A DNA stretch of 35,520 nucleotides from a virus (lineage: Duplodnaviria > Heunggongvirae > Uroviricota > Caudoviricetes): the IMG/VR virus record IMGVR_UViG_2724679293_000011. One strand, 5' to 3'. A program made the translations under genes and the position numbers. The number at the start of each line of letters is the position of its first letter. Position 1 is the first letter of the stretch. The notes beneath the pieces are model-generated. The model worked only from the letters and a program-made list of their open reading frames with translations, was not told where the DNA came from and made no database searches. Positions 3,056 to 35,520 of this stretch are shown here, in pieces.

Positions 3056-6000
3056 TCAACGAATACTGATGCCGGAAGCAGCTTTTTTGGTCACAATCAC
3101 CGTACAGTCGGTGATATTGCCTGCCCCCTGATTGCCTTTCTGGAAAATCTTAAACTCCAGAGTGACGCTACCACCACCACTAGGCATATCAATAACTGCA
3201 CTGTAACTACCGGGAATGGCCCCTTTAGTTTCTCTGGATGCGATTAATACGCCGTTTTTGCGAACTTCAAAACCATAACCCGTGTATCGCGTGCCTCCTG
3301 GGTTATTTCCGCTCCCCGGATCGTCATACGCTATACCGTTAAAAATAATGGGCGGAATAATAATCTGGCGGTCAAAGTTATGATCATCGCTGATGGTGAC
3401 TGTAACCGTACCGTCTGGTGTTTCCGTGTTACCCCACGTACCGACTTTTTTCGGGAAGGCTTTTGATACAGCTTTAACGAAATCCCCTCTGACCTGGGTC
3501 GCCTCCAGCATGCCCTTAATCGTACAGTTCTGGTTAATCGTGACATTGTTGAGCGTTCCTGAGTTCGCATTCACACTGCCACTGATATCCGCATTTTTAG
3601 CGGTCAGCTTTCCGTCTGATGTCAGGGAAAATACCGGAGGACTGCCACCACTGGTAATGGTGGGGGCCGTCAGGCGCTTCAGGAACACGTCGTTCATGAA
3701 TATCTGATTGCCCTGCGCCACAAACATCGGCGTTTCATTCCCGTTTGCCGGGTCAATAAACGCGATACGGTTAGCGGCAACCAGAAACTGGCTCAGCTTG
3801 CCTTCCTCCGTGTCCTCCATGCTGAGGCCAATACCCGCGACATAATGTTTGCCGTCTTTGGTCTGCTCAATTTTGACGCCCCACATGGCATTCCATTTAT
3901 CGTTAGCGTCCTTCCACTCTTTCGAAAACTCATCCAGTCTGCTGGCGTTATCCTCCGTCAGATCAACTTTTTCCAGCAGCTCCTTGCCGAGATGGGATTC
4001 GGTTATCTTGCCTTTGAAAAAATCCAGGTAACCTTCCGCATCATCGCTCGCCCGACCGACGGCCTCCACGAATGCCGATTTGCCAACGGTGTTCACACTG
4101 CGGATATAAAAGTAATAATCATGGCCCGGTTTGATATTGATACTGGCGGCTATCCAGTACAGCCCCGTGCCAAGGTAGCGGGCTGTGGTTTCAACCTGCC
4201 TGATATCGGTAATCCGCGTTTCCGAGAACCAGAACTCAAACTGTACCGTCGGATCATAAACCGCAAGATGCGGCGTGGCAGTTATCTGAAAATAGCCCGG
4301 CGTCAGCTCAATCCGCGACGGCGCTGCCGGGGCGGCAATCCGGAACGATACCGACGCCGGATCGCCCTGCTGTCCCCGGGCATTTACTGCCCGGACCGTC
4401 AGCGTGTAACGCCCCAGCGCCAGCTGCCTGAAGCGGTAAGTGGTTTCCGTCGTCCGGGCCGTGCTGACCAGCCGCTCACTGCCGTCATCGGCGGCCACGG
4501 TCAGGCGAAGCATAAAGCTCACACCCTTCACTACCTTCGGCGTGTCCCAGCGCGCCAGCACCTGATACTCCCCACTGTCTGCGGTGACTTCGGCGGTCAG
4601 GTGCTGCACCGCTGGCGGCGTGACACCATTCACCGTGCCGCTCTGGTCGCCGTCAAAGTGCGCTCCGTTATCCACGATGGCCTCTTTTTCCGGCACATGC
4701 TGCACGGCAGTGATGGCATACATGCCGTCGTCGTTCTCACGGATACTCACACAGCGGAACAGGCGCTGGCGCAGCGTCGGCAGCTTCAGCCCCCACACGC
4801 TGTATCCGGCAACGCCGTCAGGAACACGGCTCACTTTCACCTTCACGCCGTCGGTGACGGACTGAACCTCCACGCTGACCGGATTGCCACTTCCGTCAAC
4901 CAGGCTTATCAGCGTGGTACCGGAGGATGGCAGCGTGATTTCACGGTCGAGCGTCAGCGTCCGGGTCTGGCTGTTCACCGCCAGCACACGCCCGCCGGTG
5001 CTGATCCCCGCATAGTCATCATCACAGATTTCAATGACATCGCCCGGTACATGGCGAAGCCCTTCTGCGCCCACGCTGAAGTCCACGGTCTGCGTCTCCA
5101 GCAGCTCCGTTTTAATCAGCCACAGCCCGGCGCGGTGTGCCTGCCCCCGACTGGTACAGCCAAAGGCATCCATCTTCGTGACGTTACGACCGTAACGGAC
5201 AATGGCCTGCGTATCCTCCACAAGCTCTGTCGCCGTCTCCCAGCCGTTATTCGGGTCAATCCAGTTCACCTCAACGGCATTATGACGGTCCTTCAGGGCG
5301 CTGAAGCTGTAGCGGAACGGCGCGCCATCATCCGGCATCACCACATTACTGCGGTTATAGGTCCACACCTTATCCGATGGCCGGTCCTGCACGAACGTCA
5401 GCGTCTGCCCGTTCCATACCGGCATACAGCGCATCGCCGAGCAGAAATCACTGAGCACATCCCACGCCTTGCGCTGCGTGGTCAGGTACGCATTACAGGT
5501 GATACGCGGTTCCGTGCCACCAAAGCCATCCGGCACCGACTGGTCGCAATTCTGGCCGATGACATACAGCGCCCATTTATCCACATCCGCCGCACCAAGA
5601 CGTTTCCCCATGCCGTAGCGCGGATGGGTCAGCATATCCCACAGACACCAGGCCATGTTGTTGCTGTATGCCGGTTTTAACGTTCCGTCCCAGATACCGC
5701 TGTATTGTCGCGTCTGCGGGTTATAGTTCGACGGCACCTGCAGAATGCGCCCGCGAAGATGATAATTACGGCTCACCTGCTGGCTGCCGAACTGCTCCGA
5801 ATCCACCTGTACGCCGACCAGTGCCGTGTTCGGGTAGCACTGTTTCACATCGATGATTTCGGTGTATGACGACCAGAGCGTTTTGTTCTGCAGCTGGTCT
5901 GTGGTGCTGTCCGGCGTCATTCTGCGCATCCGGATATTAAACGGGCGCGGCGGCAGGTTATCCACCACCACCGAGGCCAGATACTGCGAGGTGGTTTTGC

Positions 6001-31150: not shown

Positions 31151-32938
31151 ATGGACGATATTAATATCAGCCTCGACGAACTTAACACTATTGATTTATC
31201 CCCCTTAATCCAGAGTAAGCTGCCAGTTACCTGCTTTGATATCACAAAGTATCTTTCTAGCCTAGGTGATGGAAGAGCGGAGATAAGACTGCTAACCCAT
31301 ATTTGCGGTTTTCACTTTCGTCCCGAAAATCCACAGGTACCATTTGGTCCGTGCTTTCAAAGCAGCCAAGGTAGATCTGCAATTCCGGATGACATTAACG
31401 GGTTGTCGCTGGAGGTACTTTCTCAATTTTGCCCGACGATAGAGCTACCCGAACTTCAAGCTCGTATTGCTGATACACTTTGGGTTCGTAAAATTGGTGG
31501 AATCCGTTTTCCTTTGCTGGCAGTCCGTGCTTATTATGCGTCCAGTATAGCTATTATGACATCGCAAGGGACGTGGGTTAGTGCTTTAGAACGCCTAGAG
31601 CGTGCGCTTAGGCTGTGTTGTTTTTTTCGAAAGCATACTGATTTCAGGGATGAATTTGATCAGCTTTCGGCACATCTACTAGCAGAGTATGAACGTACCA
31701 GAGAACAAGGCGATTCACCTTATCCGCTGCGACTCCTGCAACTCGATATCGACTGTAAAGTGAGTGAGCCATCTTTTATTGCCCAGGAACTCCTGTTTCT
31801 GACAAAAAACTATCTGGCTCAAAAATTATTTTCATTTGCCGTCGATGCCTGTAAAACCGCAATCCCGATTGCGAATAGGTGCTGTGACAGAGATACACAG
31901 TTTGAATTCTGGCGGCTTCTTGCCGATACACATCTGGAAGAGTCAAAATTCCAAGATGGCGGTATGATTTCGGCAGCCTGCATGCAGAATGCTATTGAAG
32001 CACTGGCTAATATTCCAGGAACCCGAATAGAACGTCTTGCGCTGTATGAAGAAATGCGTGATTACCAAATCGAATCCCGTCACCAGATGTCTATCCTTCA
32101 GTCTCCCCCTCAAGATATTAGTGAGATTGTCCATCAAGCCAAGAGTCGGGTAGTCGGAAGAGATTTGTTTGATATGGTTTTCAGACTTGCGATGCTGGTC
32201 TGTCGGCCAACCAGCATTGAGAGACTTAAGGCTCAAGCAATAGAACAAAAGGCCAACAGCATAGCTTGGATGTTTGGATCAACACATATTGATCATGAGG
32301 GAATGACACTTGCTCGCATACCCGCAGGATTGGGGATTGATGATGCAAATGGGGCAGTTATTTGGCCCATAATGATGACGAGAATGCGTATCGACCATGA
32401 GTTGGCAGTAGCTGGGCAAATTATTCCTGCTACAGATGAGATCACAATGAAATATCCAATCTCGGAGGCGTTTTTTCGCGATATGTTCATCAATCATCCC
32501 TTCATCCCGTTTGGGCATGAAGAGTTTTTCATCAAGGGTATGGTTTGCGGTTTCAATGGAGATTTTATGACGGCATGCCACGTGTTGATTCCCCAGATCG
32601 AAAATAGTCTGAGATATGTGGCTAAAATTAAAGGTGAGGAACCATCGCAGCTTCACGGGGACGGTTCGCAAGAGCGAAATGGACTCAAGGGATTACTAGA
32701 TAATCCACTGATTATTGAAGCTTTCGGCGTAGACATAATTGGCAATCTTCAGGCCTTACTGGTAGATAAAATCTATGGTGATTTACGAAATCAACTAGCT
32801 CACGGATATGTGCCTGCCGGTTACTACAATCAACCTCCCTGCATTTTTGCATGGTGGCTTGTATTGCACATTCTAATGAACCCTACGGCGAGATACTGGC
32901 AAGCCACTTATGGCCAAGAGAGTGAGGCTCAGACTTAA
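31151..32938 (+). CDS. Unknown 595-aa protein with C-terminal HEPN-like R-x4-H motif (LRNQLAHGY); candidate abortive-infection or defence effector
   Basis: Clean ATG ORF with an AAGGTGA ribosome-binding site on the strand opposite the surrounding prophage genes, and a long AT-rich leader; the motif R546-N-Q-L-A-H551 is encoded at 32786-32803; no Walker A/P-loop seen; family not recognised. Confidence 0.8.
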   Translation: MDDINISLDELNTIDLSPLIQSKLPVTCFDITKYLSSLGDGRAEIRLLTHICGFHFRPENPQVPFGPCFQSSQGRSAIPDDINGLSLEVLSQFCPTIELPELQARIADTLWVRKIGGIRFPLLAVRAYYASSIAIMTSQGTWVSALERLERALRLCCFFRKHTDFRDEFDQLSAHLLAEYERTREQGDSPYPLRLLQLDIDCKVSEPSFIAQELLFLTKNYLAQKLFSFAVDACKTAIPIANRCCDRDTQFEFWRLLADTHLEESKFQDGGMISAACMQNAIEALANIPGTRIERLALYEEMRDYQIESRHQMSILQSPPQDISEIVHQAKSRVVGRDLFDMVFRLAMLVCRPTSIERLKAQAIEQKANSIAWMFGSTHIDHEGMTLARIPAGLGIDDANGAVIWPIMMTRMRIDHELAVAGQIIPATDEITMKYPISEAFFRDMFINHPFIPFGHEEFFIKGMVCGFNGDFMTACHVLIPQIENSLRYVAKIKGEEPSQLHGDGSQERNGLKGLLDNPLIIEAFGVDIIGNLQALLVDKIYGDLRNQLAHGYVPAGYYNQPPCIFAWWLVLHILMNPTARYWQATYGQESEAQT

Positions 32939-33059: not shown

Positions 33060-33156
33060 AACCACGCCAGATCTACCCTGTGCCATGAAAAATGAGAATG
33101 TCAATTCACTCCTGAACTAATGCTTTTTAATCTAGTAACGTCTAAAATACCTAACA

Positions 33157-33558
33157 TTATCCCTGATAAAATGCCAGTATGCGCTGCATAACTTCACTCA
33201 TCCGGCACTCGCGACAGATTATGTTTAGGCGACTGTCGTAGCGACGTATTTCTCCATCAGGTAACGACCAGATAAGGTCCGGATCAACCACAGCTGTTTT
33301 CTTCACCTTTGCCCTCGAGAGTTTTTTGCGGGCGTTTTGCCAGTCCTTACGCGCCTGTTCAGACGGGAATAACCCGTAGCCGGAGTTGTATACATCGCCA
33401 CTGGCTACCAGCTCTCTGGCAAGAACGCTCATCAGATATCTAGTCGCACCTGTTTTAGCTTCCAGTTGCCGTAACGTCTCACGACCGCTCTGGCGCACGA
33501 GTTCCACCACCTGCCCTTTAATTTTTTCCCGCTCTTCTTGTGTAAAAACTTTTGCCAC
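33157..33558 (-). CDS. Hypothetical basic protein (133 aa) immediately downstream of the O-like replication gene
   Basis: GTG start behind AAGGGGGA; C-terminal CxxC (CRECRM); occupies the position of a replication partner (P-like) but is too small and unlike lambda P. Confidence 0.55.
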   Translation of the reverse strand: MAKVFTQEEREKIKGQVVELVRQSGRETLRQLEAKTGATRYLMSVLARELVASGDVYNSGYGLFPSEQARKDWQNARKKLSRAKVKKTAVVDPDLIWSLPDGEIRRYDSRLNIICRECRMSEVMQRILAFYQG

Positions 33559-33598
33559 AAGTCCCCCTTAAAATTACCTCATGACCTGAAATCAAAAC

Positions 33599-34463
33599 TT
33601 ATCCTCTGAAACCAGGCGGAATTTCTGTATTCGGTTCAGAAATATGATTAACACAACGCTGTACAGGTGAACGCCCCAGGCGGATGACCAGTTCGTCCCA
33701 TTTTTCGCGGAGCTTTGACGGGCTCATGATGTTTTTTACCCAGAATGGATCCCGCTGTACCCGACCAAACATTTCACAAATTTGTCTGTGGCTTCTGCCA
33801 TCCAGCATCCGCATTGTGCGCACATCATTGGCCCAGACAGTCCAGTTAGGCTCTTTTGGTCGCATGATCTCGCCATCATCACTGGCGGCCTGTTCGTAGA
33901 GACCCACGATCCGCCCCCATATCCACTGCGCACACGCCAGATCCTCCTGGCTACCCCACTGGCGTTTTTTCGCACTAAACACAACTGCGCCAGGGTGCCG
34001 GATTAAAAAATCCTGTTCAGCCGTCTGCGGGTCCGGTTGCGAAGCTTCCGGACGAAAAGTGTTTTTATTCTCTGTAGTAATCTCTGTTGTATTCTCTGTA
34101 GGATCATCGGGCCATTTTGACCCGATGACATTGGGTCGTTTTGAACCAATGGAGCGTTTCATTTTGACCTCTTCCATCGTGTCATTTTGACCTGATGGAG
34201 CGGCGCATTTTGAACCGATGGATTCGCTCAATTTGCCATCATCTAAAAGCTCGCTCCCATAGTTAATCGTGTAGAAATTGGTCATATCGCGCTTTGATTT
34301 ATTGAGCTTTTCACAACGCAAAAGCCCCAGCGTTTTCAGACTTGCAAACGCGCGCTTTAACGTTGACTCTGACCAGAATGGGAACTGTTCCAGCCATTGT
34401 TCCGTTGTGTTGTAAATCCAGCGAACACCATCACATTCCATGCCGGAATTGGTATCTCTCAAC
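33599..34463 (-). pseudogene. Replication initiator (lambda O-like, iteron-binding), 5'-truncated by IS903 insertion
   Basis: The ORF 33599..34552 continues about 30 codons into the IS903 left end, so its native N-terminus is displaced; the gene body contains the iteron array, which shows up in the protein as repeated SIGSK-type peptides. Confidence 0.65.
34110..34230. repeat. Origin-like iteron array: five direct repeats with consensus CATTTTGAMCYGATGG at 22-25 bp spacing, adjacent to an AT-rich segment (34060-34105)
   Basis: Repeats begin near 34113, 34138, 34160, 34183 and 34206 and lie inside the O-like gene, as the lambda ori iterons lie inside O. Confidence 0.6.
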
Positions 34464-35520
34464 GGCTTTGTTGAATAAATCGAACTTTTGCTGAGTTGAA
34501 GGATCAGATCACGTATCTTCCCGACAACGCAGACCGTTCCGTGGCAAAGCAAAAGTTCAAAATCACCAACTGGCCCACCTACAATAAAGCCCTCATCAAC
34601 CGTGGCTCCATAACTTTCTGGCTGGATGATGAGGCGATTCAGGCCTGGTATGAGTCAGCAACACCTTCTTCACGAGGCAGACCTCAGCGCTATTCTGACC
34701 TTGCCATCACGACTGTGCTGGTCATTAAACGCGTATTCAGGCTGACCCTGCGCGCTGCGCAGGGCTTTATTGATTCCATTTTTTCTCTGATGAACGTTCC
34801 GCTACGCTGCCCGGATTACAGCTGTGTCAGCAGGCGGGCAAAGTCGGTTAATGTCAGTTTCAAAACGCCCACCCGGGGTGAAATCGCACACCTGGTAATT
34901 GATTCCACCGGGCTGAAGGTCTTCGGTGAAGGCGAGTGGAAAGTCAAAAAGCATGGCCAGGAACGCCGCCGTATCTGGCGTAAGCTGCATCTCGCCGTTG
35001 ACAGTAAAACACATGAAATCATCTGCGCTGACCTGTCGCTGAACAACGTTACGGACTCAGAGGCCTTCCCCGGGTTAATCCGGCAAACCCACCGGAAAAT
35101 CAGGTCAGCCGCCGCCGATGGCGCTTACGATACCCGGCTATGTCACGATGAACTGCGGCGTAAGAAAATCAGCGCGCTTATCCCTCCCCGAAAAGGTGCG
35201 GGTTACTGGCCCGGTGAATATGCAGACCGTAACCGTGCAGTGGCTAATCAGCGAATGACCGGGAGTAATGCGCGGTGGAAATGGACAACAGATTACAACC
35301 GTCGCTCGATAGCGGAAACGGCGATGTACCGGGTAAAACAGCTGTTCGGGGGTTCACTGACACTGCGTGACTACGATGGTCAGGTTGCAGAGGCTATGGC
35401 CCTGGTACGAGCGCTGAACAAAATGACGAAAGCAGGTATGCCTGAAAGCGTGCGTATTGCCTGAAAACACAACCCGCTACGGGGGAGACTTACCCGAAAT
35501 CTGATTTATTCAACAAAGCC
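34464..35520 (+). mobile_element. IS903-group insertion sequence (IS5 family), complete 1057-bp copy with 18-bp terminal inverted repeats
   Basis: Left end GGCTTTGTTGAATAAATC at 34464-34481 and its exact reverse complement at 35503-35520; length 1057 bp as recalled for IS903; the window ends at the last base of the element. Confidence 0.9.
34496..35464 (+). CDS. IS903 transposase (DDE, IS5 family)
   Basis: 322-aa ORF from a TTG start; ...KQKFKITNWPTYNKALINRGSITFWLDDEAIQAWYESATPSSRGRPQRYSDLAITTVLVIKRVFRLTLRAAQGF... matches IS903/IS102 transposase as recalled; the annotated start may be the internal GTG (307 aa). Confidence 0.9.
   Translation: MKDQITYLPDNADRSVAKQKFKITNWPTYNKALINRGSITFWLDDEAIQAWYESATPSSRGRPQRYSDLAITTVLVIKRVFRLTLRAAQGFIDSIFSLMNVPLRCPDYSCVSRRAKSVNVSFKTPTRGEIAHLVIDSTGLKVFGEGEWKVKKHGQERRRIWRKLHLAVDSKTHEIICADLSLNNVTDSEAFPGLIRQTHRKIRSAAADGAYDTRLCHDELRRKKISALIPPRKGAGYWPGEYADRNRAVANQRMTGSNARWKWTTDYNRRSIAETAMYRVKQLFGGSLTLRDYDGQVAEAMALVRALNKMTKAGMPESVRIA

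Follow-up and report, generated by a model that had tools for sequence, protein, structure and literature searches.

Replication origins that lie inside the genes for their own initiators are textbook knowledge for bacteriophage lambda and for the RepA_N plasmids, and to our knowledge the origin-binding module of the RepA_N/DnaD type is regarded as rare in Gram-negative bacteria. Here we consider the viral DNA of IMG/VR record IMGVR_UViG_2724679293_000011 (Caudoviricetes), a stretch of 35,520 nucleotides (nt), which is referred to at its full length as the window, and in which an array of direct repeats, or iterons, is found within a minus-strand replication initiator gene. This array is very probably the replication origin of a lambdoid prophage of the Qin/mEp460 type, located in the linker region of its own initiator gene and orphaned in this DNA. 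Both a lambda-style origin and an iteron specificity of its own are supported on purely computational grounds, and the in-gene origin as such would be expected biology: an element of known kind in a new, experimentally uncharacterised case.

Besides lambda, the closest described systems are the RepA_N replicons and the O-only modules of lambdoid phages. In the plasmid pSK41 the N-terminal domain of the initiator binds Rep boxes located centrally within rep, the central domain encoded by the origin is a dispensable linker, and the C-terminal domain is host-specific (PMC5703833). The iterons of RepA_N replicons in general are semi-palindromic repeats converging on a poly-A tract (PMC7145576). 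Among lambdoid phages, an O homologue unaccompanied by a helicase or helicase loader was found in 34 of the 314 surveyed (Genome Res 2025, PMC12315714); the origin of these O-only modules is not described in that survey, and the word 'iteron' is absent from the paper. The type of origin and N-terminal domain (N-domain) considered here belongs to the O-only modules and is widespread in E. coli, being carried by 1893 of 5426 complete genomes, that is by about a third.

Anatomy of the repeat array

The five repeats named in a preliminary description of this DNA are all present. By direct reading of the plus strand they begin at 34113 (CATTTTGACCCGATGA), 34137 (CGTTTTGAACCAATGG), 34160 (CATTTTGACCTCTTCC), 34183 (CATTTTGACCTGATGG) and 34206 (CATTTTGAACCGATGG), with spacings of 24/23/23/23 bp. 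Tandem Repeats Finder (TRF) reports a 23-nt period at 34139-34222 and likewise a 12-bp array, to which we return below, and a repeat finder places the units in a 23-bp register at 34105, 34129, 34152, 34175, 34198 and 34221. The 10-mer CATTTTGAMC, with at most one mismatch, occurs five times in 94 nt on one strand and seven times in the remaining 71 kb, counted on both strands. Similarly, self-identity at lag 23 reaches 58/92 at 34136, the window-wide maximum for 92-nt stretches at lags of 18-30, and 200 dinucleotide-preserving shuffles of the 35.5-kb window gave a mean of 42.2 (standard deviation 1.45) and a maximum of 48. The array is real and non-random, chance being excluded by the clustering of the 10-mer together with a lag-23 self-identity above that of all shuffles.

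Read on the coding strand, the full iteron unit measures 23 nt, and its two 10-nt arms meet at an A-tract. Three units are palindromes, of the plus-strand form CATCGGGyCA-TTT-TGACCyGATG, matching at 8-9 of 10 positions (34105-34127, 34129-34151 and 34175-34197), and the phased dyad array as a whole comprises 5-6 units with 23/24-bp spacing at gene nt 322/345-460, in the part of the gene that encodes the linker (a window coordinate equals 34565 minus the gene nt). The individual elements are these:

34221-34243, minus strand: iteron 0, degenerate (GATGATGGCAAATTGAGCGAATC in gene orientation), in the 23-bp register, with an arm match of 5/10
34198-34220, minus strand: iteron 1 (CATCGGTTCAAAATGCGCCGCTC), upstream arm and core retained, peptide SIGSK
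34175-34197, minus strand: iteron 2 (CATCAGGTCAAAATGACACGATG), dyad 8/10, peptide SGQND
34152-34174, minus strand: iteron 3 (GAAGAGGTCAAAATGAAACGCTC), core GGTCAAAATG alone retained, peptide EVKMK
34129-34151, minus strand: iteron 4 (CATTGGTTCAAAACGACCCAATG), dyad 8/10, peptide SIGSK
34105-34127, minus strand: iteron 5 (CATCGGGTCAAAATGGCCCGATG), dyad 9/10, the best copy, peptide VIGSK
34066-34101, minus strand: 12-nt block, three tandem ACAGAGAnTAC(A/T) units on the coding strand, peptide TENTTEITTEN, the presumed unwinding element

The 12-nt block, in which the repeat finder recognises three 12-bp tandem copies of TATTCTCTGTAG (34066-34101), reads ACAGAGAATAC-AACAGAGATTAC-TACAGAGAATAA and starts 5 nt past iteron 5. 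It has 30-31% GC and 67% purines on the coding strand, and the lowest GC content of any 40-nt window within the initiator gene (30%) is found at 34060-34099. The duplicated AT-rich sequence noticed earlier corresponds to ATTCTCTGTAG, at 34067-34077 and 34091-34101, with a diverged third copy in between. Describing this region as an 'AT-rich stretch' is correct as to composition, but the block is not merely AT-rich, being a strictly conserved 12-nt motif.

By analogy with the described origins, we infer initiator binding, unwinding, helicase recruitment and origin activity along the following lines. Dimers formed through the N-terminal winged-helix domain of the initiator would bind the 23-bp semi-palindromic iterons, present in 5-6 copies phased at 23 bp, whose arms (CATCGGGTC and GACCCGATG) converge on an A-tract. 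The nucleoprotein complex would bend the DNA at the A-tracts and destabilise or melt the adjacent 36-bp ACAGAGAnTAC(A/T) block, whereupon the lambda-O-like C-terminal domain would recruit the host helicase.

Conservation and selection at the DNA level

Homologues were drawn from annotated phages (tblastn) and from one genome per species (a GTDB scan, with sequences from 80 of the 345 confirmed matches), giving 95 that are non-identical. This collection replaced the IMG/VR relatives, in which N-domain identity is 95-100% and which were useless for tests of conservation. Cores resembling GGTCAAAATG are found at the same place in the gene, at about nt 320-450, and are spaced by 23 bp in 83 of 115 intervals, the remaining spacings including 24 bp (16/115) and 22 bp (8/115). 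The iterons are kept down to about 46-51% protein identity, their bearers including phages of enterobacteria, Providencia and Hafnia, Staphylococcus phage 96 and the Bacillus phages vB_BhaS-171 and BMBtp2, among others. As 23 is no multiple of 3, the reading frame shifts between successive iterons, and across the homologues the cores fall into the three codon phases 95, 92 and 51 times. Since the iterons are thus read in three frames and occur in all codon phases, selection acts on the DNA.

The 12-nt block can be examined at the level of single codons. Phased units of the consensus ACAGAGAnTAC(A/T), two to five in number, are present in 77 of the 95 non-identical genes. In the 61 homologues with a TExTTE peptide, glutamate within the motif is encoded by GAG in 160 of 160 cases, against 44% elsewhere in the same genes, and threonine by ACA or ACT in all 286 cases, with ACC and ACG, which together account for 56% elsewhere, used in 0/286. 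One residue of the peptide varies (N/I/T/S), since the sole free nucleotide of the motif is a middle codon position. With the motif fixed at synonymous sites, these codon counts show it to be under nucleotide-level purifying selection in Firmicutes and in Gamma-, Delta- and Epsilonproteobacteria. A cross-phylum 12-nt motif at synonymous sites provides a handle for recoding the DNA with the protein unchanged, and the iteron/12-mer signature would permit automatic annotation of origins of this class.

Recent horizontal exchange at the module boundary was considered as a source of the conservation of the 12-nt motif and rejected, the flanking N-domains being only about 50% identical in protein. 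A reading of the repeat as a DnaA-trio or a primase site was likewise dropped, as the sequence fits neither convincingly, and a full-text literature search for motif strings including GGTCAAAATG and ACAGAGATTAC returned only unrelated primer or guide sequences. Contigs of metagenome-assembled genomes assigned to Veillonella parvula (L100), Bacillota (L101) and Collinsella (L150) encode an N-domain whose protein sequence is 100% identical to that of the E. coli initiator. L100 and L101 also agree with E. coli in linker peptide and iteron layout, save that L100 has one 12-nt unit more. These Firmicutes/Actinobacteria contigs are likely mis-binned E. coli prophage contigs.

In principle, the repeats could be a feature of the protein, a repetitive low-complexity linker peptide whose coding DNA has no function of its own. 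The peptides SIGSK (twice), VIGSK and TENTTEITTE are reiterated in a segment predicted to be disordered, the iteron-encoded residues 113-145 having an AlphaFold2 confidence score (pLDDT) below 50. The reiteration of SIGSK/VIGSK, which the preliminary description attributed to the repeats at large, holds for three of the five units, but the other two yield the unrelated SGQND and EVKMK, as successive 23-nt units are in different frames. Iteron cores in all three codon phases, synonymous sites fixed in the 12-nt repeats (GAG 160/160; ACC/ACG 0/286 for threonine) and the dispensability of the equivalent pSK41 peptide (PMC5703833) speak against such a reading as well, and we hold it to be extremely improbable.

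Klebsiella phages with the same N-domain and a different C-terminal domain (C-domain), of the TIGR02220 type, retain the iterons. In phage SfIV, where it is the C-domain that is shared and the N-domain that differs, none of them is present, and there is instead a separate array with a period of 15 bp (GTCAGATTTTGACGG). In the sequences compared, the iterons therefore co-vary with the putative origin-binding N-domain and not with the C-domain, as is to be expected of cognate sites. The SfIV array lies in the replication gene (L007, 3381-3526), where it encodes repeated DPSKSDASKS peptides, and can be taken as a putative second, uncharacterised class of iteron specificity among the O-only modules.

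The initiator and its truncation in this genome

The features of the initiator gene and of its surroundings that matter for the argument are as follows:

33599-34463, minus strand: 5'-truncated initiator gene (pseudogene), nt 102-966 of the intact 966-nt gene (321 amino acids (aa), WP_000054487.1)
34229-34462, minus strand: remnant of the putative N-terminal origin-binding domain, aa 35-112
33677-33997, minus strand: lambda-O-like C-terminal domain, about aa 190-296 (PHROG 2357/277)
33602-33664, minus strand: DnaT-like C-terminal tail, the last 21 codons, VQRCVNHISEPNTEIPPGFRG in the window (4603-4665 in the intact relative L001)
34464-35520, plus strand: IS903B (1057 bp), which truncates the initiator gene; the window ends at the IS903B terminal inverted repeat

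The earlier placement of the repeats inside an O-like coding sequence stands in so far as they lie inside the minus-strand initiator open reading frame (ORF), but 'O-like' is true only of the C-terminal domain. The C-terminal half is 34% identical to lambda O over 148 aa (BLASTP, E 3e-27), and the protein taken as a whole has a match in PHROG, 391 'replication initiation O-like' (E 3e-92); the intact initiator is named 'hypothetical' in RefSeq. The N-domain was approached through its predicted structure. An AlphaFold2 model built with 26 homologues is confident for residues 10-110 (pLDDT 81-96) and has a winged-helix topology, and in a Foldseek search of the PDB its best matches are N-terminal domains of RepA_N initiators from staphylococcal plasmids (4pql, 4pt7 and the Rep-DNA complex 5kbj), ahead of the N-domain of Vibrio cholerae PLE RepA (4ro3). 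The model resembles the winged helices of RepA_N and of the DnaD N-terminal domain, and the fold predicted for the N-terminal origin-binding domain is closest to that of the RepA_N plasmid initiators. A search of PDB sequences with the whole protein and with the N-domain profile gave only the DnaT tail and weak PadR-like noise, and NCBIfam matched only the last 20 residues of the intact initiator, to DnaT and far below the cut-off.

The structural matches also include TubR centromere binders and repressors, and like TubR many repressors are winged-helix proteins binding phased repeats; plasmid iterons often double as autoregulatory sites. The array could on these grounds be a set of operator or centromere-like sites, serving autoregulation of the initiator or partition, with the real origin elsewhere in the phage. 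The sites are however inside the gene, 345 nt from its start, not a place at which an operator would be active; behind them comes a conserved block of AT-rich repeats, such as is known from the proven origins of lambda and pSK41; and no partition genes lie beside the module in the lambdoid context, so that we regard this explanation as highly unlikely.

The preliminary description missed the truncation of the initiator gene by IS903B. Of the minus-strand ORF at 33599-34552, the authentic part ends at 34463; this remnant is identical to the ATCC 25922 allele save for G>A at gene nt 934. The gene has lost its first 101 nt (codons 1-33 and 2 nt) and everything upstream, and the missing residues 1-33 include eight positions invariant in the N-domain family (L16, A17, G21, L22, E24, A25, Q29 and Q30). 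The window matches E. coli strain 7_33_46A exactly, where the IS903B transposase abuts the host gene rspA and the initiator copy carries the RefSeq label 'incomplete; missing N-terminus'. No 9-bp target duplication is found at IS903B in the matching genome (L003, 5465-6521), which has TCTCTCAAC on one side and GTTCGATAA on the other; an IS-mediated adjacent deletion therefore carried away the prophage's left arm together with its immunity region (cI, cro and dicB among other genes). The promoter and immunity region are gone with the 5' part of the gene, and the matching genome contains no second copy of the ori/N-domain segment. Since IS903B has removed the initiator start along with these regions and no second copy exists, the origin is orphaned in this window: the DNA element is intact, but this genome does not make the initiator that belongs to it. 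What is left is a well-preserved relic, silent in cis, and its activation could come only from an initiator of matching specificity provided in trans.

An intact DNA element beside a destroyed initiator gene could also be a decoy, in which chromosomal iterons titrate the initiator of superinfecting phages that share their replication specificity, or trigger abortive replication in situ, with a present role in exclusion or incompatibility and not in replicating the prophage. Ectopic copies of ori-lambda or of its iterons are reported to inhibit lambda growth (PMC4488673, PMC3349717), and phages with the cognate initiator are common, given that 1893 of the 5426 complete E. coli genomes carry this ori/N-domain type. 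The reported effects come, however, from multicopy plasmids, and 5-6 chromosomal sites in single copy are unlikely to titrate an induced initiator. Among the best matches only one complete genome has the IS903B truncation, which points to a recent accident and not to a selected state, and a single allele cannot yield evidence of selection on the remnant. A decoy function is for these reasons improbable.

In its intact form (966 nt, 321 aa) the gene is present in ATCC 25922 and in phages PhiR42_1, HannyBb and mEp460, in the context of a lambdoid early-right operon with the order cI-like, Cro/DicC, YdaT-like, initiator and DUF977 (Ren-like). Phages of the mEp460 type carry it at 96-97% nucleotide identity and mEp460_4F5 at 78%. 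In the window a DUF977/Ren-like gene (PHROG 142; minus strand, 33157-33558) directly follows the initiator, likewise in the intact relatives L001 and L002. Further along, in the interval from hokD to the DUF977 gene and on the other strand, 31151-32938 (plus strand) encodes a 595-aa protein with DUF7380 and DUF4209, which matches the PADLOC candidate defence family PDC-S39 (E 2e-102) and is, to judge from that match, likely an anti-phage moron borne by the prophage. Scans of 33100-34600 gave one promoter-like site against 1.6 expected from shuffles, which is not above expectation, and four terminator-like sites where 1.4 were expected; three of these overlap one another at 33679-33725, and all four lie on the non-coding strand, outside the origin.

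The extreme C-terminus of the initiator deserves separate attention. The tail of the intact allele (VQRCVNHISEPDTEIPPGFRG) shares 15 of its 21 residues with the very end of E. coli DnaT (E 5e-4 in the search of PDB sequences), the endings of the initiator being VQRCVNHISEPD/NTEIPPGFRG. Such a tail is also carried by SfIV O and by the Klebsiella initiator whose C-domain is of another type, but not by lambda O, which is accompanied by P. This likeness to DnaT, or primosomal protein I, probably explains the 'Primosomal protein I' annotations, and the tail may be related to the absence of a helicase loader gene; the portion of the text of the 2026 preprimosome paper available to us assigns no role to the last residues of DnaT. 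A lambdoid initiation route not described so far can be proposed on this basis, though we think it doubtful. The 12-nt repeats would act in it as a sequence-specific element instead of a passive AT-rich region for unwinding; once melted, they would be recognised in single-stranded form or serve for loading, which would explain their nucleotide-level conservation over a range that extends from phages of Bacillus and Staphylococcus to prophages of E. coli. The DnaT-like tail would give the opened origin entry into the PriA/PriB/DnaT-DnaC restart primosome. With its last ~20 residues copying the extreme C-terminus of the host DnaT, an O-only initiator would then need no helicase loader from the phage. 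The cross-phylum 12-nt motif and the loader-less, DnaT-tailed initiator are in our view the most interesting threads of this analysis.

Several observations weigh against the identification of the array as a lambdoid replication origin. Two of the five iterons lack one arm, the units at 34152-34174 and 34198-34220 consisting of one arm and the core only. In Pfam-A, hmmscan of the intact 321-aa protein at E <= 0.01 returned 0 families, RepA_N (PF06970) included, and hhalign of the N-domain profile with the N-terminus of lambda O gave a probability of 0.1, a weak comparison made with a single lambda sequence. No P, DnaC-like or helicase gene is present in the module, in the window or in its intact relatives, and the step after unwinding is therefore unexplained. 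Of the O-only lambdoid phages 'none [have been] studied experimentally', and their replication is not understood (PMC12315714). Finally, the initiator is certainly defective here, so that in its present host no function of the element can be demonstrated. Set beside the phased anatomy, the selection on DNA and the co-variation with the N-domain, these points leave the in-gene origin very probable.

Comparison with lambda, O-only modules and RepA_N replicons

The preliminary description had seen in this locus the architecture of lambda ori, and in silico its in-gene position, its dyad iterons around an A-tract and its downstream AT-rich block all match. Both origins occupy the central part of the initiator gene, where the linker between N- and C-domains is encoded, with iterons from nt 349 in lambda O (span nt 349-433, spacing 20-24 bp) and from nt 345 here, and in both the iterons are dyads around TCAAAAyG. 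The lambda iterons, of the ATCCCTCAAAACGAGGGAT type, are followed by 46 nt with 26% GC and 67% purines, and those of the present locus by about 45 nt with 31% GC and 67% purines, the purines being counted on the coding strand in both. The C-terminal domains are homologous, and the gene occupies the same position in the operon, after cI, cro and the cII slot. The differences are equally clear. The arms are CCCTC/GAGGG in lambda and CGGGTC/GACCCG here; the unit is 18-19 bp in 4 copies in lambda and 23 bp in 5-6 copies here; the N-terminal domain has no detectable sequence similarity to that of lambda O; and the AT-rich block is, unlike that of lambda, a strict 12-nt repeat. Moreover, the initiator is followed not by a P gene but by the Ren-like DUF977, and has the DnaT-like tail that lambda O lacks. 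Because the arms differ from those of both lambda and SfIV, the distinct initiator specificity suggested earlier is, on this in silico evidence, a fair inference. With the O-only modules (phage LLS, mEp460_4F5) the locus shares an O homologue and the lack of a helicase or loader, but the copy in this window is truncated.

The resemblance to RepA_N replicons concerns the binding module. Direct reading of pSK41 rep (L180, 13205-14164) locates four Rep boxes (ATGTCAAAAGGACACGTC) at gene nt 413, 436, 459 and 482, at a spacing of exactly 23 bp. The period is thus the same, and the core GTCAAAAGGAC nearly so (TGTCAAAAGGACA in pSK41 and GGTCAAAATGACC here); in pSK41, too, AT-rich tandem repeats follow the boxes, in units of 15 nt (boxes and repeats together at gene nt 413-545), although the downstream repeat there, GATACTGATTTTATT, contains no ACAGAGA and the one here is ACAGAGAnTAC. 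As in RepA_N replicons generally, the origin is central in the initiator gene and has semi-palindromic iterons converging on a poly-A tract, and the C-domain is swappable and host-specific; the linker encoded by the origin is dispensable in pSK41 and predicted to be disordered here. By contrast, there is no match to PF06970, the C-domain is of the lambda-O type and not of the staphylococcal DnaG-binding type, and the context is a lambdoid prophage instead of a plasmid. We call the module RepA_N-like, and not a member of RepA_N, because its sequence does not match the Pfam model of that family.

The element thus fits the layouts of both lambda and RepA_N, with a binding module that is nearest to RepA_N as judged from its predicted fold and iteron design. 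Comparison of the sequences suggests a common ancestry of the ori/N-domain module across Firmicutes plasmids and enterobacterial phages. On this evidence the N-domain, the iterons and the 12-nt repeats would together be an ancient unit, common to phages and plasmids of Firmicutes and Proteobacteria and built like the RepA_N origin of pSK41; in the present lineage this unit is fused to a C-domain of the lambda-O type. In this way lambdoid O proteins become linked to an origin-binding module of the RepA_N/DnaD type, with a 23-bp phasing held in common with pSK41.

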